Made by a program: the position numbers and the translations under genes
Part shown: positions 33,763-48,765 of the stretch, piece by piece
How positions within the stretch are numbered: position 1 is the first letter of the stretch
How the letters are laid out: every line of letters starts with the position of its first letter
Notes under the pieces: generated by a model
Database searches by the model: none
The model's input: only the letters and a program-made list of their open reading frames with translations
What the model was told of the DNA's origin: nothing
IMG/VR virus record: IMGVR_UViG_3300032116_000062
Location: 38,381-102,380 of that record
Length of the DNA: 64,000 nucleotides
Source of the DNA: a virus
Direction: 5' to 3' (one strand)

Positions 33763-33794
33763 TTTGGTAAACCCAAAAAAATTTTGTATATTTA
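33763..33794 (+). promoter_or_regulatory. Bacteroidota-type promoter-like element upstream of portal
   Basis: TTTG-N20-TATATTTA. Confidence 0.5.
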
Positions 33795-33806
33795 AAAAAA
33801 TTTTAT

Positions 33807-35549
33807 ATGGCAGATAAGTCGGTATTTGGCAGGTTACAAAAACTATTTTCAACCAATACAATAATTCGTAAGACACCACAAGGTATAAAAGTTGTTGATA
33901 CAGATGAATATCAATCAATGACTACGAATCTTGTTGACCGTTTTATGAAATTAAAGGTATCTAATTATGCGGGAGGAGTCGAATCGGGGTTAGCATATCA
34001 GCAAGTTCGTATAGACCTATTTAGAGATTATGATTCAATGGATATGGATCCTATAATATGTGCTGCATTAAATGTATATGCAGATGAGTGTACAGCAAGA
34101 AACGAATTTGGCAATGTACTTAAAATACATCATGAAGATGATAACATAAAACAAATACTTGAAAATCTTTTTTATGATATTTTGAATGTTGAGCATAATT
34201 TGTGGATGTGGACTAGAAATCTTGTAAAATATGGTGACTTTTACTTACAATTAGAAATGGCAGAAGGGTTAGGAATTGTAAATGTTCTTCCGATGTCTAC
34301 ATATGAGATGAGTAGAATTGAAGGATTTGATCCGACAAACCCACAAAGAGTAAAATTCGTATACGCACCATATCAGAATCCCTATAACGCTGTAGGACAA
34401 ACTGCAAAAAAAGAATACGAAAACTATGAAGTAGCTCACTTTCGTTTGAATGGTGATGCAAACTTCCTTCCATATGGTAAATCAATGATTGAAGGCGGTA
34501 GAAGAGTTTGGAAACAATTATCTCTTATGGAAGATGCTATGTTAATTCATAGAGTAATGAGAGCTCCTGAAAAAAGAATCTTTAAAGTAGATGTTGGTAA
34601 TATCCCACCAAACGAAGTGGATAACTACATGCAAAAAATTATCAACAATTCTAAAAAAGTTCCGTTTATAGATGAAAGAACGGGAGAATATAATTTAAAA
34701 TATAACATTCAAAACCTAATTGAAGATTATTATATGCCAGTTCGTGGTAGTGATAGTGGTACTTCAATTGATACTCTTAAAGGTTTAGAATACAATATGA
34801 TTGATGATATTAACTACTTAAAGGGTAAGTTAATGGCAGCACTTCAAATTCCAAAAGCATTTTTAGGATATGAAGAAGAAACGAATGGTAAAGCAACTTT
34901 AGCCGGAATGGATGTTAGGTTTGCAAAAACCATAGAAAGAATACAAAGAGTATTGGTATCAGAACTCACAAAGATAGCAATTGTACACTTATACGCTCAG
35001 GGAATAGAAGATGAAAGATTGACTAATTTTTCATTAGAATTAACAATCCCATCCAAAATATATGAGCAAGAAAAAGTTGAATTATATAATGCAAAAGTTC
35101 AATTGATTCAACAAATGCAACAAACTAAAATGTTATCTAAAGAATGGATGTATGAAGCAATACTTGGTATGGCAAAGGATGAGCAAGATCAACAAACATT
35201 GGCCATACTGGAAGATACAAAACAGGCGTTTAGATTAACATCAATAGAAACACAAGGGGTAGATCCAGCAAAGGAAACAGGAACCGATGCACCAACAAAT
35301 GTTGAAGAAGAGATTGCAAAAATAAAAGCGGAGTTAGAAGAAGATGGTGTTGGTAGACCTAAAGATACTATCAGATATGGTAAAGATGATCATCCAGAAG
35401 GAAGAGACCCATTGGGAATTAAAACTCTAAAAGCAAAAGAAGGTTCTGTCAAATATAAACCAAGAAAAAATCCATATTTAGAAATATTTAAAGATATGAA
35501 TGGAAATAAAAAGACAATTTTGACAGAGGATTTGACAAAAGAGCAATAA
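33807..35549 (+). CDS. gp20: Portal protein (T4 gp20-like)
   Basis: LMEDAMLIHRVMRAPEKRIFKVDVGNIP, EDYYMPVRG, TSIDTLKG. Confidence 0.95.
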   Translation: MADKSVFGRLQKLFSTNTIIRKTPQGIKVVDTDEYQSMTTNLVDRFMKLKVSNYAGGVESGLAYQQVRIDLFRDYDSMDMDPIICAALNVYADECTARNEFGNVLKIHHEDDNIKQILENLFYDILNVEHNLWMWTRNLVKYGDFYLQLEMAEGLGIVNVLPMSTYEMSRIEGFDPTNPQRVKFVYAPYQNPYNAVGQTAKKEYENYEVAHFRLNGDANFLPYGKSMIEGGRRVWKQLSLMEDAMLIHRVMRAPEKRIFKVDVGNIPPNEVDNYMQKIINNSKKVPFIDERTGEYNLKYNIQNLIEDYYMPVRGSDSGTSIDTLKGLEYNMIDDINYLKGKLMAALQIPKAFLGYEEETNGKATLAGMDVRFAKTIERIQRVLVSELTKIAIVHLYAQGIEDERLTNFSLELTIPSKIYEQEKVELYNAKVQLIQQMQQTKMLSKEWMYEAILGMAKDEQDQQTLAILEDTKQAFRLTSIETQGVDPAKETGTDAPTNVEEEIAKIKAELEEDGVGRPKDTIRYGKDDHPEGRDPLGIKTLKAKEGSVKYKPRKNPYLEIFKDMNGNKKTILTEDLTKEQ

Positions 35550-35564
35550 ACCAATAGAAAAATA

Positions 35565-35572
35565 TATTTATA
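35565..35572 (+). promoter_or_regulatory. Putative late promoter TATTTATA
   Basis: Intergenic, upstream of ATG 35594. Confidence 0.55.
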
Positions 35573-35593
35573 TCTGATTAATTGTATAAATTG

Positions 35594-36466
35594 ATGAAAA
35601 AAATAAAACATTCAAAGTTTAAAAATACAGGATTCATTTTTGAATTGCTTGTAAGACAAGTTACATCTGAAATACTTTCATCTAACAAATCTGTAGCTGA
35701 AACTATTCTTAAAGAATTTTTTAATTCCAAAAAGGAATTATCAAAAGAATTGAAATTATATCAATATTTGATAAATGAAAAATACAATTCCGAATCTAAA
35801 GCGGAAAAGTTTATAGATACGATATGCGAAGCTAGAAAGAGATTAGATGAAAAAAAATTGACAAAAGAAAAATATTCTTTGATTAAAGAAATAAAGGAGA
35901 GATACAATATAGATGAATTTATTAAATCTCCTATTTCAAATTATAAAACGTTAGCATCAATTTACAAAATATTTGAGGTAATCACATCCAATGAACAATA
36001 TGAACCAACGGATATTGTAAACTCAAGATTTACTATAACGGAAAATATAATAAACACATCTATACAAAATAAAGATTCAAAAATAAAAGATGCAGTTTTA
36101 GAAGAATATAGAAAGCAAGATGAGGATTTAAGAGCCGTATCTTACAAATTACTAGTTGAATCTTTTAATAACAAATATAAAAATCTTACCGCAAATCAGA
36201 AAGCATTATTGAGAGAATATATCAATAATATCAATAACACAGGTAAGTTAAATGAGTATGTATCAAACGAAGTTATAAGTTTAACAAACGAACTAAAAGA
36301 AATTGGTACAAAGATATCTGATAAAGTTACTAAAATAAAATTAGCAGAAACAATCGCAAATATAAAAAAAATAAAATCTGTTAAAAAGATAAAAGAAGAA
36401 CACTTATCGGCAATGATGATGACATATGAATTATTAAATGAATTGAAAAATGCAATCAAAAAATAA
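35594..36466 (+). CDS. Helical head-module hypothetical protein
   Basis: KHSKFKNTGFIFELLVRQ N-terminus; lies between portal and protease. Confidence 0.75.
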   Translation: MKKIKHSKFKNTGFIFELLVRQVTSEILSSNKSVAETILKEFFNSKKELSKELKLYQYLINEKYNSESKAEKFIDTICEARKRLDEKKLTKEKYSLIKEIKERYNIDEFIKSPISNYKTLASIYKIFEVITSNEQYEPTDIVNSRFTITENIINTSIQNKDSKIKDAVLEEYRKQDEDLRAVSYKLLVESFNNKYKNLTANQKALLREYINNINNTGKLNEYVSNEVISLTNELKEIGTKISDKVTKIKLAETIANIKKIKSVKKIKEEHLSAMMMTYELLNELKNAIKK

Positions 36467-36884
36467 TTTAGACGAAAAAAAGATAAGTGAGTTAAAAGAA
36501 AAAATCCGTAAAATGGTTAGGGAGATGAATACCAATGCGAATGTGCAAGGGTATAATACACCAAAAGCATTTGGTAAACCTGAAAACGAAAAAAAGAAAG
36601 GTAAAAGGTTAGCAGATTTGACAGGATATAGTGTAGTTAGTGAAAATCGCTGGTTGGAGTTAAAGAGGGATGAATCAACGGCACAGGCAAAGATTGGTAG
36701 AGGAATTTCTAACATCAATAAACAATTGAAAGAAATGGAAAGATTTCTCAATTGGTATGGTAGAATTAAAAATGAAAGTGGAGTGGATAATAAATCTTAT
36801 TGGAAAAGAACTAATCACCATATTTATGCTATAAAGGAACGATTATTAAAATTGGACCAGAAAATAAGACAAATATCAGAATAA
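36450..36884 (+). CDS. Probable internal head protein
   Basis: ELKEKIRKMVRE leader followed by YNTPKAF module. Confidence 0.65.
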   Translation: MQSKNNLDEKKISELKEKIRKMVREMNTNANVQGYNTPKAFGKPENEKKKGKRLADLTGYSVVSENRWLELKRDESTAQAKIGRGISNINKQLKEMERFLNWYGRIKNESGVDNKSYWKRTNHHIYAIKERLLKLDQKIRQISE

Positions 36885-37186
36885 TGAAAAAATCAGAATT
36901 AATAGAACTTATCAAACAAGTCGTTAAAGAGGAAAACGATTACCAAGAATTATTCAAAACAATGTTGAATAAAAGTGGTAAATCAATAGAATCCATGAGT
37001 GATGATGAAAAGAAAAAATTCTTCAATGCAGTGGATAAGGCTTACAAAGCAAAGCAAGAGGGAAAATTGAGAGGATATAACGAATTGACTGATAAGCAAA
37101 AACAAATTGATGTAGATAAGGATGGTGAGATTGAAGGTTCGGATTTGGCCGCATTAAGGTCCAAAAACGAACAAAAAAAAAAGTAA
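36884..37186 (+). CDS. Probable internal head protein with EF-hand-like loop; ends at slippery site
   Basis: MKKSELIELIKQVVKE leader; DVDKDGEIEGSDL; ends CAA AAA AAA AAG TAA. Confidence 0.75.
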   Translation: MKKSELIELIKQVVKEENDYQELFKTMLNKSGKSIESMSDDEKKKFFNAVDKAYKAKQEGKLRGYNELTDKQKQIDVDKDGEIEGSDLAALRSKNEQKKK

Positions 37187-37245
37187 ATGAAAACCTTGCT
37201 ATTGGATTACTATCCGTATTGGGTAGTATTATCATAGGTAAGGTT
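37177..37245 (+). promoter_or_regulatory. Putative -1 programmed ribosomal frameshift signal
   Basis: In-frame A_AAA_AAG (37177-37183), stop codon, 8-nt spacer, extended stem-loop 37192-37245. Confidence 0.7.
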
Positions 37246-37596
37246 GTTTTTTATTATTTGTATGAGTTAGGTAAATCCGGATTAAATTATTTTTTCGGAA
37301 AACCAAACTACAAAGAACCGGTTAAGAAAATTTTAGATTCATTATCAAACAACAGAAAGTTTGTAGATGATATGTCTAAAATGATTAACCCACAAAAAGG
37401 AATGGATAGTTCTACTATTGATAAAATTGTGAAAATGCCATTGGTACAATCACAGATATCAAAACAGATAGGATCTAAAAATTCTAATATAGATAAAACT
37501 GAAATAGAAAATCAGTTGAAAACTATTATTTCTAAATCTTGGAACGATTTAAGTAGTAAAGTGATGGATAAAGTAAAAAATGATTTAAAAAAATGA
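37183..37596 (+). CDS. -1 frame extension (VNE, hydrophobic helix, soluble domain); alternatively a TTG-start ORF at 37219
   Basis: Frame open from slippery site: VNENLAIGLLSVLGSIIIG...; no ATG before the hydrophobic helix. Confidence 0.65.
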   Translation, partial: VNENLAIGLLSVLGSIIIGKVVFYYLYELGKSGLNYFFGKPNYKEPVKKILDSLSNNRKFVDDMSKMINPQKGMDSSTIDKIVKMPLVQSQISKQIGSKNSNIDKTEIENQLKTIISKSWNDLSSKVMDKVKNDLKK

Positions 37597-38183
37597 GTAA
37601 GAATCTTCTAATAGAAACACATCTTTTCGAGGCAAAGCTCGTTAAAGAAGAAAACGGAACATATTTGGTCCAGGGAATCCTTCAGAGAGCCGGTGCGCCA
37701 AATCAAAATAATAGAAGATATCCGAGAGAAATACTTGAAAGAGAATGTAAAAAATACGACCAACTAATTAAAGAAAGACGTGCACTTGGTGAATTAGATC
37801 ACCCAGATTCTCCGGTTATTAATTTGAAAAACGTATCACATAATATTAGAGAAATTTGGTGGGAAGGGGATGATGTGATGGGTAAAGTGGAAATACTATC
37901 TACACCATCCGGAAACATATTAAAAGAATTATTAAAAAATAATATTCGTTTAGGAATATCATCAAGAGGATTGGGTTCTGTAAAAGAATTGAACGATGGA
38001 ACTGTGATGGTGCAAGAAGATTTTGAATTGGTAGGATGGGATTTTGTTTCAAACCCATCAACTCACGGAGCATTTATGGCACCTTTACAAGAATCGAAGC
38101 AGTGGAAACAAATTGCTGAAGAGTGTGGTAAGTGGTGTAAATCGCAAGACCTTATGAGAGAAATAATAATTGAATTAAATTAA
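37593..38183 (+). CDS. gp21: Prohead maturation protease (T4 gp21-like)
   Basis: NQNNRRYP, ALGELDHP, VSH, GISSRGLGS, DFVSNPS. Confidence 0.95.
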   Translation: MSKNLLIETHLFEAKLVKEENGTYLVQGILQRAGAPNQNNRRYPREILERECKKYDQLIKERRALGELDHPDSPVINLKNVSHNIREIWWEGDDVMGKVEILSTPSGNILKELLKNNIRLGISSRGLGSVKELNDGTVMVQEDFELVGWDFVSNPSTHGAFMAPLQESKQWKQIAEECGKWCKSQDLMREIIIELN

Positions 38184-38184
38184 T

Positions 38185-38499
38185 ATGGCAAAATTAATAA
38201 ACTTATTACCTACAAATCTTAAAGAGGCAAAAAATGTCGATGTTTCTGATTTGGTAAAACGAATTGAGAAGCATACTGATAGAAATGCACATACCGAATC
38301 TGTATTAGAATTGGCAAAGTTCTTAAAAGAAAAAAAGATGGAAAACATCTTAAATTCAATTATGGATATTCATAAAGAAATGGGAAGCATGCCATCGGAA
38401 TTATCCAAATTAAGAGGACAAATTTTAGATGAATTACTTAAATTTGTTAAAACTAAATATGGATATGATATTTATACACAAATAAACTCTGCTTTCTAA
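38185..38499 (+). CDS. Probable internal head protein
   Basis: MAKLINLLPTNLKE leader. Confidence 0.65.
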   Translation: MAKLINLLPTNLKEAKNVDVSDLVKRIEKHTDRNAHTESVLELAKFLKEKKMENILNSIMDIHKEMGSMPSELSKLRGQILDELLKFVKTKYGYDIYTQINSAF

Positions 38500-38987
38500 T
38501 GAAAAAATTAAAAAACTTATTGCCTAAACAGAAAGTAAATGAAGCAATCTCATCTTCAAAAAGTGTAAAAGATTTTAAATTTTCAAAAGACGAGCTCGAA
38601 TTCTTACAGGCATTAATAAATGGTGTAGGAAGTGGACAACATCCATATGCAGATAGTAGAACTATTGGTTCGTTTAATATGAAGTATGTTGATGGGTTGA
38701 TGAAAAAAGTTAAAAACAAAGTTCCATCTAAATTCAAATCACAATACAATAGTGTTTTATTAAAATTAGGACAAGTAAATGAAGATTTGGAAGATATGGA
38801 TGTTGCAATTCCATCGAAAGTTGAAAGATTTTTAGATAGAGCATTGAATGTAATAAAATCTTATAACTTACCAAGAAAAAAAGAGCAACTTGTTATTGCA
38901 AAATTAGTTGATGCATTGGGAATGAACCCATCAGAACTACAACAGGCAGTGCAGAAGTTGAAAAGATATAAAATTGTAAAGAGATAA
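38499..38987 (+). CDS. Probable two-module internal head protein
   Basis: MKKLKNLLPKQKVNE leader and internal GQVNE. Confidence 0.65.
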   Translation: MKKLKNLLPKQKVNEAISSSKSVKDFKFSKDELEFLQALINGVGSGQHPYADSRTIGSFNMKYVDGLMKKVKNKVPSKFKSQYNSVLLKLGQVNEDLEDMDVAIPSKVERFLDRALNVIKSYNLPRKKEQLVIAKLVDALGMNPSELQQAVQKLKRYKIVKR

Positions 38988-38989
38988 CT

Positions 38990-39520
38990 ATGATAAAGTT
39001 AAAAAATATTTTAAGAGAAACCGAAGAGTTTCAACAACTACCGTCCGAATTAAAAAGACATTTTTTAGAAATCATATCTACCTATGGACAGCATAGAGAA
39101 AGTATGAAAAGAAAATCGGATATCAGACAGATTGCTGAAACACTTGGTGCAATTGCAGACGCTGCACAGGAGTATACTTTAAGAGAGGGTGGTGATTGGT
39201 TCGATAGAGTGACTATTAAGAGAAATATGAATGAACTTAAAAAGTTACAGGCTGCATTTGAAAAAGAATCAATTGAAGCAAAATCACAAGAACAAAGACT
39301 TGAAGCTCTTTACGAAGATATGGGACACGTATTGGGTAGATATTTTGAAATAGCAGAAATCACAGAAGAACAAATGCACCAAAGATTGGGTTTGCAAGAA
39401 AAGGCACCTGAAGGATGGGAAAAGACGGTAAAAGCAATGAAAGATGAACCGGGTATCGATAACCCATGGGCATTGGCACATTGGATGAAAGGACAAGGAT
39501 ACAAATCTCATAAAAAATAA
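38990..39520 (+). CDS. Probable internal head protein
   Basis: MIKLKNILRE leader; C-terminal module after GLQE (KAPEGWEKTVKAMK...). Confidence 0.65.
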   Translation: MIKLKNILRETEEFQQLPSELKRHFLEIISTYGQHRESMKRKSDIRQIAETLGAIADAAQEYTLREGGDWFDRVTIKRNMNELKKLQAAFEKESIEAKSQEQRLEALYEDMGHVLGRYFEIAEITEEQMHQRLGLQEKAPEGWEKTVKAMKDEPGIDNPWALAHWMKGQGYKSHKK

Positions 39521-39522
39521 TT

Positions 39523-39894
39523 ATGGAACAATTAGCATCATTATTATTGCATAGCAGAACACAGGCGCATGTATTTCATGTTGGTGTTTCCGGAGTAGGG
39601 GCAGACTCGGCACATAGAGCATTACAGCATTACTATGATACTATTGTTGATTTAGTTGACGGATTGGTTGAAGTTTATCAAGGAAAAGAAGGATTAATTA
39701 AATTACAACCAATAAGTGGTTTAGATACAAATTGTGAAATAGAAAATATCATATCTTATTTTGATAAACTTTGTAAAATTGTTGCAAAATTAAGACAAGA
39801 TAAAAAACTACAAGATAGTTGGATTCAGAATGATATTGATACGGTAGTTTCGTTACTTTATTCTACAAAGTACAGACTAACCTATCTTAAATAA
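39523..39894 (+). CDS. Dps/ferritin-like four-helix protein (DUF5856-like)
   Basis: QAHVFH...AHRALQHYYD...DGLVEVYQG...IQNDID...YRL. Confidence 0.7.
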   Translation: MEQLASLLLHSRTQAHVFHVGVSGVGADSAHRALQHYYDTIVDLVDGLVEVYQGKEGLIKLQPISGLDTNCEIENIISYFDKLCKIVAKLRQDKKLQDSWIQNDIDTVVSLLYSTKYRLTYLK

Positions 39895-40160
39895 TGGAAG
39901 AAGTAAAAGAAAATTTTATATCTAAAAACTGGCAAATAATAGTTGGGGTGCTGACGGTAGCATTCGCAGCCGGTGGTATTTTTAGCGAATTCAGATTGAT
40001 GCACAAAGAGATAGATGAAATAAAAAAAGAAACGGATTCCAAAGTTCATCAGATTATAGAAGAAAGAGAAAGAAAAAACAATTGGTTGCAAGAACAAGAA
40101 GAAAGGATTGATGAACTTGAGGAATGGAAAGCCTTTGAAGATGGAAAAGCAAGCAAATAA
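39894..40160 (+). CDS. Single-TM coiled-coil membrane protein
   Basis: WQIIVGVLTVAFAAGGIF followed by charged coiled coil. Confidence 0.65.
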   Translation: MEEVKENFISKNWQIIVGVLTVAFAAGGIFSEFRLMHKEIDEIKKETDSKVHQIIEERERKNNWLQEQEERIDELEEWKAFEDGKASK

Positions 40161-40410
40161 TTTTACAGATACATTTTTCAGTAAGTTAAAAGAACAATCT
40201 TTTACAATCATTGTATTGGTAGGAATAATGGTTTATCAGAATCATATATTTTCTGGTCAAATGGAAGAGTATAAAAAAATGATAAATCAAAAAGAAGAAC
40301 TAATTTTAAAACTCACCGATGAGGAACGTAGTAGGTTAATAGAGAGAGAAAAATATTTAATTGAACAGAGAGATAAGTTTATAGAAGATTTAATTGAAAG
40401 AAATAATTAA
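40141..40410 (+). CDS. Single-TM coiled-coil membrane protein
   Basis: FTIIVLVGIMVY followed by coiled coil; likely start 40141. Confidence 0.6.
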   Translation: MEKQANNFTDTFFSKLKEQSFTIIVLVGIMVYQNHIFSGQMEEYKKMINQKEELILKLTDEERSRLIEREKYLIEQRDKFIEDLIERNN

Positions 40411-40453
40411 TTTTCTTTAGTTTTCTAAAAAATTTTTATATATATTATCAAAT

Positions 40454-40590
40454 ATCCCATTCCCTATGGGATTTATACGTTTAGACATAGTTGATTAATG
40501 AATACCCTTCTCTTATAAGGTGTGACCGAACAATCAACATAATTACATTGGAGTTTCCTACGAAATAACTTCACTAACAAAATTAAGGAG
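40454..40590 (+). promoter_or_regulatory. Structured 5' leader of scaffold-capsid operon with AAGGAG
   Basis: Stems ATCCCAT/ATGGGAT, GTTGATT/AATCAAC, TGGAGTT/AACTTCA; SD-like AAGGAG at 40585-40590. Confidence 0.45.
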
Positions 40591-40597
40591 AAACAAA

Positions 40598-41806
40598 ATG
40601 GCAAATTCAAAATTGTTAAAAGAAGCAATTGCCGACGCTAAAGCCGTAAAAGAAACTGCATTAGCTAACGCAAAACTCGCTCTTGAAGAAGCATTCACTC
40701 CAAGACTTCAATCTATCTTATCTCAAAAATTGAGAGCAGAAGCTGAAGATAACAAAGAGGATGCAGAAAAAGTAGACGAGGAATTGGATTCTTCAAACAT
40801 TGGTTCTTCTACTTCTAATCCTAAATTAGACGCACACACCGAATTTGAGGGTGGCTCTACTGAAACATCTTCCGCTGCACCAGGTGCAGAAGTTGATGAT
40901 TACAAAAAGGTAGCTGACATCAACGAAGAAGAAGGTATGGAAATGGGCGATGATGAAAAATCGAAAGATGATGAAATCGCTGAATTAAGAGCTAGATTAG
41001 CAGAATTAGAAGCAGGAGATGAAATGGGTGGAGATGAAGATGAAATGGGTTCAGATGATGAATTCAATTTCGATTCAGAAGAAGGTGATGGTGAAGATTA
41101 CATGCCAACCGGTGACGAAACAGAGGACACCGAAGAAGATGACATGGATTTGGAAGCTATCATCAGAGAGTTAGAAGCACAATTAGGTGAAGAAGAAGGT
41201 TCAGAAGAAGAGATGCCTGCAGATGATTCAGCAATGGCTGAAAATTTAGCAGACGGATCAGAAGCAGGAACTGACAAAGGTGAAGATCCTAAAGTGGTTG
41301 TAACTAACGAAGAAGAAGAAATGAAAGATGACGAAGAGAAAAACGAAGTTATCGATCTTGAAGAAATTCTTCGTGAAATGGAAGCGGACATGAAAAAAGG
41401 TGATGAAGATGAGAAAAAAGATGAGTCTTTGAAAGCGGAGTTGAACGAAGCTTACAATACTATCAAATCTCTTCAAAAAACTATCAACGAGGTGAACTTA
41501 TTGAACGCTAAGTTGTTGTTCGCAAACAAATTATTCAGAGCGCATAATATGACCAACGAACAGAAGGTTAAAGTTATCGAAACTTTGGATAGAACAAAAT
41601 CAGTTAGAGAAGTTAAGTTGGTTTACTCTACATTAGCAGAGAATTTCAAATACGCTACATCTAACAAATCTACTAAAAAAGCAATTTCTGAAGGAATCGC
41701 ATCTAAAGCAGTTAAATCAACTGCACCAAAAGCGGCTAAACAAGTAATTGCAGAATCTGCAGATTTTTCTGATAGATTTAAAAAGTTAGCAGGTATTATT
41801 AAGTAA
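40598..41806 (+). CDS. Prohead core scaffolding protein (gp22-equivalent)
   Basis: Very acidic coiled coil directly upstream of major capsid; EVNLLNAKLLF, C-terminal FKKLAGI. Confidence 0.85.
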   Translation: MANSKLLKEAIADAKAVKETALANAKLALEEAFTPRLQSILSQKLRAEAEDNKEDAEKVDEELDSSNIGSSTSNPKLDAHTEFEGGSTETSSAAPGAEVDDYKKVADINEEEGMEMGDDEKSKDDEIAELRARLAELEAGDEMGGDEDEMGSDDEFNFDSEEGDGEDYMPTGDETEDTEEDDMDLEAIIRELEAQLGEEEGSEEEMPADDSAMAENLADGSEAGTDKGEDPKVVVTNEEEEMKDDEEKNEVIDLEEILREMEADMKKGDEDEKKDESLKAELNEAYNTIKSLQKTINEVNLLNAKLLFANKLFRAHNMTNEQKVKVIETLDRTKSVREVKLVYSTLAENFKYATSNKSTKKAISEGIASKAVKSTAPKAAKQVIAESADFSDRFKKLAGIIK

Positions 41807-41833
41807 TAAACAAAATAATTAAAATTAATTAAA

Positions 41834-43441
41834 ATGGATTTAAAACAAATTATGCAAGGCAAAAACCCACAAAACGTGATGCTTGAGCAAACCAGAGGTT
41901 TGAAAGCAAAGTGGGAGAAGACTGGCTTACTTGAAGGAGTAGGTTCAGAAACTTCAAAGCATGGTATGGCAGTGATGCTTGAAAACCAAGCTAAACAATT
42001 ACTCGATGAAGCTACTAGAACTGGTACTTCAGCAGGTTCAGAAGAGTGGGCAGGTGTAGCTCTTCCATTGGTAAGAAGAATTTTTGGTTCAATCGCAGCT
42101 AAAGAATTCGTTTCTGTACAACCGATGAACTTACCTTCAGGTCTTATTTTCTACATGGACTTCAAATATGGTACTAATACTACATTAGGTAGACCAGCTT
42201 CTGGTTCTTCTATGTTCGGTAATGGTGGTACTTTTGGTAAAGACAATTTAGCACCTTCTGGAAACAAATTGGGTTCTACTCAAGCTACTGAAGGTGGTCT
42301 TTATGGTGCAGGTAGATTCGGATACACAATCAACGATACTACTGCAGCTGTAACAGCAACTGTAACTTCTGCTTCTTGGTCTGATGTAAACTTTGATAAT
42401 GCATTATCTGCATCAATTGCATCTGCTAACTCAAGAGTAATGAAAGTTAAAGTTGGATTACCTGCTGATGCTGATTGGCAAGGTGTAAGAGCATTTAAGA
42501 TTTCAGGTTCTGCAACTACAACATTGTTACCAGAGTATACTGTTGTTGATTCATACGGATCTGCATCTTTCGTTCTTTCTGGATCTGCAGTTACCGATAC
42601 AAACGTAGCTACACAGACATTGACTTATCATGTTCAACCAACTGATTACAACAGAGGTGATTTCGAAGATAGAGGTTCTGATCTTCCAATCCCAGAAATT
42701 GAATTGGAATTGAAATCTGAACCAATCGTTGCTAAAACTCGTAAGTTAAAGGCTATCTGGACTCCAGAATTGGCACAAGACTTGAACGCATACCATTCAG
42801 TAGATGCTGAAGCTGAATTAACTCAAATGCTTTCTGAATACATCTCTCTTGAGATTGATTTGGAAATCCTTGAGATGTTGCAGCAAAATGCATTCACAAC
42901 TGATTATTGGTCTGCTAGAGTTGGATATGATTGGAACGGTTCTGCATTTGCAATTGATGCAAACGCAGCAGCAGCTTCAGCGTACACAAAAAGCACTTGG
43001 TATCAAACTTTGGGTATCAAATTGCAGAAAGTTTCTAATAAGATTCACCAATTGACTATGAGAGGTGGTGCAAACTTCATCGTTTGTTCTCCAAACGTAG
43101 CAACTATTCTTGAATCTATGAACGGATTCTCTGCTAACCCAGGTAAAGATGCATTGCAGTTCGCAGCTGGTGTGACTAACATTGGTTCAATCTCTAACAG
43201 ATACGATGTTTATAAGAATCCTTATATGACTGAAAACGTAATCTTGTTAGGTTTCAAAGGTTCTAACTTCTTCGAAACAGGAGCAGTTTACGCACCTTAT
43301 GTACCATTGATTATGACTCCACTTGTTTATGACCCAACCAACTTCACTCCAAGAAGAGGTGTTATGACAAGATACGCTAAGAAGATTGTAAGACCAGAAT
43401 TCTACGGTAAGATCGTAGTTGAAGGTTTACACTCTCTCTAA
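41834..43441 (+). CDS. gp23: Major capsid protein (T4 gp23-like)
   Basis: LPLVRR, VSVQPMNLPSGLIF, AKTRKLKAIWTPELAQDL, YAPYVPL, GVMTRYA. Confidence 0.97.
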   Translation: MDLKQIMQGKNPQNVMLEQTRGLKAKWEKTGLLEGVGSETSKHGMAVMLENQAKQLLDEATRTGTSAGSEEWAGVALPLVRRIFGSIAAKEFVSVQPMNLPSGLIFYMDFKYGTNTTLGRPASGSSMFGNGGTFGKDNLAPSGNKLGSTQATEGGLYGAGRFGYTINDTTAAVTATVTSASWSDVNFDNALSASIASANSRVMKVKVGLPADADWQGVRAFKISGSATTTLLPEYTVVDSYGSASFVLSGSAVTDTNVATQTLTYHVQPTDYNRGDFEDRGSDLPIPEIELELKSEPIVAKTRKLKAIWTPELAQDLNAYHSVDAEAELTQMLSEYISLEIDLEILEMLQQNAFTTDYWSARVGYDWNGSAFAIDANAAAASAYTKSTWYQTLGIKLQKVSNKIHQLTMRGGANFIVCSPNVATILESMNGFSANPGKDALQFAAGVTNIGSISNRYDVYKNPYMTENVILLGFKGSNFFETGAVYAPYVPLIMTPLVYDPTNFTPRRGVMTRYAKKIVRPEFYGKIVVEGLHSL

Positions 43442-43460: not shown

Positions 43461-43499
43461 AAGAAAAGGGGAAGTAGAAATACTTCCTCTTTTTTTTTT
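43461..43499 (+). terminator. Rho-independent terminator after capsid gene
   Basis: AAAAGGGGAAGTA-GAAA-TACTTCCTCTTTT followed by T run. Confidence 0.9.
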
Positions 43500-48743: not shown

Positions 48744-48757
48744 TGAAAAAAAAATGA

Positions 48758-48765
48758 TATTTATA
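48758..48765 (+). promoter_or_regulatory. Putative late promoter TATTTATA
   Basis: Intergenic, upstream of ATG 48813. Confidence 0.55.

Follow-up and report, generated by a model that had tools for sequence, protein, structure and literature searches.

A candidate programmed -1 recoding site joining two reading frames in the prohead-core block of a T4-like phage

We analysed a 64,000-nucleotide stretch of viral DNA (the window; G+C content 31.9%), which is part of the 102,380-base IMG/VR record IMGVR_UViG_3300032116_000062 and contains a T4-type head block including prohead-core genes. Within this block, an open reading frame (ORF) termed ORF-A ends in a run of ten A's (A10) and overlaps a second frame, ORF-B, which has no start codon of its own. 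Our overall reading, to which we give a probability of about 0.6, is that the junction is a programmed -1 recoding site in a T4-like prohead-core block, that protein A is a carrier and that protein B is cut free from it, with packaged cargo slightly favoured as its role. The recoding is the firmest part of this reading: on the sequence comparisons given below, a programmed -1 change of frame yielding an A-B protein is very probable. Specifically, more than a hundred related phage contigs retain the run, the stop and a downstream hairpin, a pattern that is beyond chance, and natural single-ORF fusions show that an A-B product is viable.

According to the proposed mechanism, the majority of ribosomes would terminate ORF-A at its TAA, and some would slip one base back on the heptamer A_AAA_AAG within the A10 run, stimulated by a hairpin 8 nucleotides (nt) downstream. 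The slipped ribosomes would read on into ORF-B and produce an A-B protein of 237 amino acids (aa). Slippage of RNA polymerase on the run of at least nine A's would add to the same product. A mainly ribosomal event of the dnaX/IS3 type appears the likelier route; ribosomal slippage is probably the selected mechanism, with a contribution from polymerase slippage. The elements of the site are the following.

36884-37186, + strand: ORF-A, 100 aa
37173-37182, + strand: A10 run, with two overlapping slippery heptamers and a length sufficient for RNA polymerase to slip
37177-37183, + strand: slippery heptamer A_AAA_AAG of the X_XXY_YYZ type, in ORF-A phase
37183-37191, + strand: V-N-E, putative prohead-protease site (cut after E)
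37183-37596, + strand: ORF-B, -1 frame, 137 codons from GTA, without its own start codon
37184-37186, + strand: ORF-A stop TAA, abutting the heptamer
37188-37190, + strand: TGA closing the +1 frame, belonging to the conserved GTAAATGA
37192-37245, + strand: stem-loop starting 8 nt past the heptamer, proposed frameshift stimulator
37195-37263, + strand: hydrophobic, membrane-type helix of B (LAIGLLSVLGSIIIGKVVF...), Kyte-Doolittle 19-residue mean 2.3

The slip site and its conservation in relatives

The 3' end of ORF-A reads CAA AAA AAA AAG TAA (protein end Q-K-K-K-stop), and its A10 run is the longest A run of the window. The -1 frame is closed by a TGA at 37132-37134 and then continues as K-K-K-V-N-E-N-L-A-I-G..., open to the stop at 37594-37596. 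Just past the run it is the sole open frame, as the +1 frame is shut by the TGA at 37188-37190. An initial annotation, made from the letters of the window, had proposed that a programmed -1 shift at A_AAA_AAG TAA joins this head-module ORF to a hydrophobic-helix frame that has no ATG before the helix. Every element lies where it was claimed to lie, and the earliest ATG, GTG or TTG in the -1 frame is a TTG at 37219, inside the helix. The proposed shift itself gained support from the conservation of the run, the start-less frame, the synonymous changes within it, the covariation of the hairpin and the in-frame fusions, as described below.

A first search with B (tblastn) yielded 18 viral contigs with 52-92% identity, in which the B matches begin at residue 1 and the junction always reads (C/G)A10 G TAAATGA(A/G). 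Third-position changes among these contigs (GAA/GAG, AAC/AAT, GCT/GCC/GCA) are silent in the -1 frame; because they are synonymous there, the -1 frame appears to be translated from V-N-E onward. In the same contigs, the -1 frame is shut 6-16 codons upstream and holds no start before +36 nt, and the TTG itself is missing in four of them. To guard against a bias for the junction, a second search was seeded on an alignment of the C-terminal domain of B alone, and it returned 51 metagenome and 80 viral loci. Some contigs were fetched more than once among the 149 loci with B; a contig end truncates three of these loci, L045 has no junction, and 145 have it.

At all 145 junction loci an A run stands just before the motif, with nine A's at 6 loci, ten at 100, eleven at 38 and twelve at one. 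At 138 of them, an A homologue can be recognised and B is in the -1 frame with respect to it, and at these same 138 loci an A-frame stop (TAA, TAG or TGA) falls 0-4 nt past the run. The junctions comprise 64 distinct sequences. Throughout the relatives, a stop closes the -1 frame 3-21 codons upstream of V(N/D)E, without a possible start between. In the A11 class, a TAA of the B frame directly adjoins the run, which leaves only the run itself as the place of the shift. The terminal A-frame codons are xAA AAA AAA AAG in 74 of 93 distinct relatives, the others having A_AAA_AAA or A_AAA_AAC, and a slippery heptamer is in phase in all 93. Synonymous-site conservation along A and B was uninformative, since codon bias holds the background near 0.7.

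Several lineages encode the two parts in other arrangements. L039 has a single A-B ORF of 340 aa through one extra base, with the joint reading L-N-E, and clusters P0054-57, P0060 and P0063 are likewise in frame through one extra base, so that their ...Q-K-K-K-V-(N/D)-E-N... equals the predicted trans-frame joint. About ten clusters at 50% identity (P0142, P0160, P0164 and others) form a sister group in which the N-terminal half of A is fused to B. L157-L159 belong to the P0142 sister group, and their fused gene occupies the same position directly before the protease gene. The A run is missing in L158 and L159, where every A copy carries B; A10 is kept in L157 and in L072, though B is in frame in both. 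In L072/P0042, B has its own ATG and a 16-residue leader, MIKLKS(I/L)LIEVMKKKS, ahead of V-N-E. L071 has the run and B behind an unrelated upstream ORF.

Three further cases depart more strongly. In L098 (2860-2920), part of ORF-A has been lost through an internal deletion, so that B, which follows A11, is in the +1 frame with respect to A; this is either a defective variant or a case that could be served by polymerase slippage only. In L045 (916-1488, a marine contig), the C-terminal domain of B sits on an unrelated N-terminal part, without the helix and without the A run; the gene is still directly upstream of the protease gene, and its upstream neighbours are lysozyme-like rather than portal. 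P0032, a protein from a JGI contig and a 99%-identical variant, has ORF-A joined in frame via V to B residues 65-137, with the hydrophobic helix deleted and the frame already shifted. A pattern search for the junction, made in viral contigs to trace P0032 and P0042, gave no matches.

The downstream hairpin and the route of the frame change

The stem-loop that the initial annotation had placed eight nucleotides past the heptamer folds at 37192-37245 with -23 kcal/mol and z = -4.66, and none of 200 dinucleotide shuffles folds as well. The region past the run is also more stable than synonymous recodings that preserve the protein; this holds in 11 close relatives and, in a wider set, for all 73 distinct sequences (z below 0 in 73 and below -2 in 61, median -3.1). 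Across a 62-sequence alignment, the structure of the window's hairpin is 75% paired. Its covariation score of 0.209 exceeds that of every one of 500 shuffles (0.171 +/- 0.008), and sliding the partners gives no more than 0.120. For one basal pair, 32 sequences have C-G and 21 have U-A; at the codon level, this exchange combines CTT/TTR (Leu) with AAG/AAA (Lys), 47 nt apart. A second covarying pair is U-A in 48, C-G in 9 and U-G in 4 sequences. RNAalifold alone recovers the basal helix only, because the inner pairing changes register between clades, and no Rfam family was found at the slip site. Conservation and covariation among relatives had been named in the initial annotation as a check on the shift; with 138 of 145 loci in the -1 arrangement and covariation above 500 of 500 shuffles, both came out in its favour.

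The lineages that need no shift serve as natural controls, whether B is in frame or has its own start. The same coding region is unstructured in L157 (z +1.5), L158 (+0.6), L159 (+0.8) and L072 (-0.9). The hairpin thus tracks the need for a frame change and not the coding of the helix.

The alternative that fares best is that RNA polymerase is mainly responsible. One A would be added in part of the transcripts, normal translation would then give A-B, and the hairpin would have another or merely minor role. We regard this as unlikely, yet much of the run's behaviour suits it: a length of 9-12 at 145/145 loci fits the 9-10 bp RNA-DNA hybrid and the run of nine needed for efficient bacterial polymerase slippage, and both non-productive frames are stopped right past the run, as in Thermus dnaX (PMC5009743). 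The genome-encoded frame also varies among relatives (in frame in L039, P0054-57, P0060 and P0063; +1 in L098), and L157 and L072 retain A10 with B already in frame. Additionally, outside the run, 23% of the Lys codons of these genes are AAG, and none of their 45 K-K-K triplets is free of it.

The hairpin stands against a mainly transcriptional route. A downstream hairpin cannot affect a polymerase that has yet to transcribe it, and this hairpin is the best-supported element of the site and is gone where no shift is needed. A hairpin upstream of the run, which would lie in the nascent RNA, reaches -15.6 kcal/mol and z -2.8 in the window but is unsupported across 73 relatives (median z -0.6); polymerase slippage requires such a hairpin only where the motif is short. 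Moreover, the phase of the heptamer invariably allows tandem tRNA slippage, the rare AAG is kept as the last codon of the run in most relatives, and the -1 arrangement is held at 138/145 loci. A_AAA_AAG is the most shift-prone heptamer in E. coli (PMC5009743).

The conserved arrangement of the junction excludes, for practical purposes, two further explanations. That ORF-B starts alone, at TTG 37219 or at an unusual codon, with an incidental A run, is highly improbable. The TTG exists, L072/P0042 has its own ATG and distant homologues stand alone; but the TTG lies inside the helix and is replaced by CTA or TTA in several relatives, synonymous variation accompanies conserved residues on its upstream side, the stretch from the -1 frame stop to VNE offers no possible start, and the relative with its own start adds its 16-residue leader upstream of VNE rather than starting downstream. 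Least probable of all is a homopolymer error in sequencing or assembly that splits a single gene, or a decaying B: A10 is error-prone and a few database entries are in frame with one base more, but 138 loci show the arrangement with 64 distinct junctions, and their samples and assemblers are many and independent, the stop past the run is kept through different codons (TAA, TAG, TGA), and B is under constraint at the protein level.

Proteins A and B and their proposed role

The ORF-A protein combines a leader at its N-terminus (MKKSELIELIK...) with a helical part and a single EF-hand/dockerin-like loop, D-x-D-x-D-G-x-I; members of its domain family share the leader and helices and have one or two such loops. 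In Pfam, A scores 16.4 bits with Dockerin_1 and 15.9 bits with EF-hand_7, both under the curated cut-offs, and some A homologues have precomputed PF00404 or PF13499 matches. Neither A nor B falls into a significant family in PHROGs or Pfam, and A gives no alignment with T4 gp67. The domain occurs in 81 longer proteins, including 6 A-B fusions, 15 that end at K-K-K and 60 with other C-terminal parts. This distribution suggests that A is a modular N-terminal carrier domain with about 60 different C-terminal parts, which may act as a general head-targeting domain or payload carrier.

B follows the motif at the joint. In a logo of 50 diverse sequences, its first position is V in 45, L in 3, I in 1 and M in 1, the second is N in 43, D in 5 and S in 2, and the E is invariant. 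The motif persists as LDE, MDE or LNE in the in-frame fusions and shifts by one codon in the V-V-N-E class, which indicates a constraint at the protein level and not a by-product of the stop codon. T4 gp21 sites have the form hydrophobic-x-Glu. The joint motif fits such T4-type prohead protease sites, as the initial annotation had supposed in matching VNE to a maturation motif, and the invariant E agrees with this. In T4, gp21 removes the N-terminal peptides of core proteins (PMC9958956).

The B family is small (70 representative clusters), with residues 19-20 (Gly, Lys) nearly invariant, and the AlphaFold2 (AF2) model of B is all-helical, with a predicted local distance difference test (pLDDT) score of 87.7 and a predicted template modelling (pTM) score of 0.83. 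One homologue was found in BFVD, only unnamed viral clusters in the ESM Atlas (score 0.77), and no relatives in 185,579 prokaryote genomes. The best VIA-align match of B (Z 5.8) was discarded as helical-bundle noise, and its weak colicin S4 and Bcl-2 rows are not evidence. Database entries of B have 83-130 aa; automatic annotation misses the slip site and cuts B short at the internal TTG or a later start.

In the proposed scheme, A would serve as a prohead-core targeting or carrier domain, and the shift would put B on a minority of A copies, much as the initial annotation had supposed a low copy number of a packaged hydrophobic cargo. The adjoining gp21-type protease would then cut after the E of V-N-E and free B with a hydrophobic N-terminus. 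Judged from the motif and the neighbouring gene, cleavage at VNE is somewhat probable. We tentatively take B to be a packaged cargo, enclosed in the prohead and released at infection, and slightly favour this role over that of a membrane anchor because of the payload-like diversity behind the A domain, because the B of L072 has a leader like those of neighbouring small head ORFs, and because only one residue separates the cut site from the helix, so that a shell-enclosed protease could hardly reach this site if the helix were inserted in a membrane.

The three small ORFs past the protease gene (38185-39520) share similar leaders, MAKLINLLP..LKE before A, MKKLKNLLP..VNE before A and MIKLKNILRE before T, and the scaffold protein begins MANSKLLKE before A. 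The neighbour leaders end in (L/V)-x-E before residue A or T, matching the joint motif, and the B of L072 has such a leader. The leaders of the small ORFs look like capsid-targeting leaders with protease sites.

An anchoring role, with the same recoding, is the less probable of the two. B would hold the assembling prohead core to the inner membrane via A, the cut at VNE would free the prohead, and B would stay unpackaged. The helix is very hydrophobic (Kyte-Doolittle mean 2.3), and the K-K-K before it fits the positive-inside rule; an N-terminal membrane helix occurs in the stand-alone homologues, of which one also has a lipoprotein signal; in the L158/L159 lineage, no A copy lacks B; and T4 proheads begin on the inner membrane with a viral helper (PMC9958956). 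Against this, the cut site would be at the membrane surface, one residue before the helix, and the protease acts inside the shell. The roughly 60 other C-terminal parts on the A domain have the look of payload delivery, the leader of the L072 B is of the same kind as those of the neighbouring small head ORFs, and B is unlike T4 gp40.

A bolder version of the cargo reading, which we consider doubtful, has a few copies of B loaded into the prohead on the carrier A, in the manner of Gag-Pol, by ribosome and polymerase slippage together; the freed NLAIGLLSVLG... would leave with the DNA and insert in the inner membrane of the new host, with A as a general payload module for many other head-internal proteins. 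If true, the site would unite, in a phage, the principle of Gag-Pol with that of the lytic or fusion peptides of animal viruses, a maturation protease unmasking the glycine-rich hydrophobic N-terminus of B.

Several results weigh against our overall reading of recoding, carrier and released cargo. The run never falls under nine A's in the relatives, a length that the ribosomal mechanism does not need, and polymerase slippage therefore probably contributes. There is no Shine-Dalgarno-like stimulator, an element that dnaX has but not all such cassettes share, at the dnaX distance of 10-14 nt upstream of the site; the nearest upstream AAGG, and the only one, is at 37146-37149, 27 nt before the slip site. 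No tRNA genes were found on the 102-kb record. In Foldseek against the PDB, the fold of B matches nothing at E <= 0.001, and B shows no likeness to T4 gp68 or gp40 (probability 0.2% for each). Finally, the distant B homologues P0153, P0155, P0158 and P0191 are stand-alone proteins of about 120 aa that have neither leader nor cleavage motif and start right at the membrane helix; the signal peptide of P0191 is of the lipoprotein type. These homologues imply that B can work as an ordinary membrane protein; their genomic context was looked for and not found.

Gene order and relation to known systems

The junction lies between the portal and protease genes of the head block, which is arranged as follows.

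33807-35549: portal gene
between the portal gene and A/B: two ORFs
37593-38183, + strand: T4 gp21-type prohead maturation protease gene (phrog_207, E = 4e-57)
between the protease and scaffold genes: several small ORFs
40598-41806: acidic scaffold protein gene
41834-43441: gp23-type capsid protein gene

The stop of ORF-B and the start of the protease gene overlap (ATGA). Among isolates, Microcystis phage Mel-JY01 is closest by protease identity (62%), and the Flavobacterium 'immuto' phages follow (52%); both have the same two ORFs after the portal gene and lack A and B. Neither megablast with the head block nor tblastn with A and B gave matches in 50,697 phage records, and relatives there were reachable via the protease only. 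Most genes have no Shine-Dalgarno sequence; among the gene starts of 33780-41834, AAGGAG occurs upstream of the scaffold gene only, which hints at a host with little Shine-Dalgarno use.

The site resembles E. coli dnaX and the IS3-family elements IS911 and IS150 in its in-phase A_AAA_AAG, its stem-loop a few nucleotides downstream and its two products with a common N-terminus, and it shares a zero-frame stop at the site with IS elements and some dnaX genes. Unlike these, it has no upstream Shine-Dalgarno-like element, a run of at least nine A's and a prohead-core setting, and the part added is a hydrophobic-helix protein behind a protease-type site. With Thermus thermophilus dnaX and the polymerase-slippage IS elements (runs of nine A/T), it shares a homopolymer of at least nine and non-productive frames stopped beside the run, and its relatives differ in genome-encoded frame, as in the Thermus dnaX type. 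It departs from that type in the conserved covarying hairpin and in-phase heptamer, and its slippage is a prediction from sequence. One sequence with both sets of features offers a clean system for separating ribosomal from polymerase slippage.

The closest functional parallel is with retroviral and totiviral Gag-Pol, where a structural or core gene ends in a -1 shift that brings a minority fusion into the particle and a viral protease frees the added part; in the present case, packaging and cleavage are what we infer. The present site is in a tailed DNA phage, and what it would deliver is no enzyme but a small, helical protein whose N-terminus is hydrophobic. Among phages, the lambda G/GT tail chaperone, T3/T7 10A/10B and the capsid genes of Lactobacillus A2 and Listeria PSA/A118 likewise involve recoding of a structural gene to give N-terminally identical products in a fixed ratio. 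Those frameshifts extend tail chaperones or shell proteins; none lies beside gp21 in a T4-type core block, and none appends a cleavable hydrophobic protein (PMC5009743). The position between portal and gp21 genes, the short N-terminal leaders ending hydrophobic-x-E and the adjoining gp21-type protease recall T4 IPI-III, Alt and gp67/gp68. Unlike in the T4 block, A has no likeness to gp67 and B none to gp68 or gp40, and T4 has neither a frameshift nor a membrane-type helix there.

We found no publication on recoding in T4-type prohead-core genes and no published description of the slip-site device in this phage group. Tail chaperones, together with a few shell proteins, are the main known cases of recoding in tailed phages; here a deeply conserved slip site would lie among the prohead-core genes of T4-like freshwater phages, a large group that is uncultured, and its modular N-terminal domain may bring varied payloads into T4-type heads.

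Some other features of the window were recorded. Between the protease and scaffold genes, two overlapping small ORFs of 88 and 100 aa at 39894-40410 each have a hydrophobic, membrane-type stretch (WQIIVGVLTVAFAAGGIF; FTIIVLVGIMVY). A T10 run at 43490-43499, about 50 nt past the stop of the capsid gene, is possibly part of a terminator. The second-longest A run of the window is an A9 at 48744-48758, which makes the tiny reading frame ATG AAA AAA AAA TGA in the gap between the 48261-48743 gene and a fibre gene of 956 aa.

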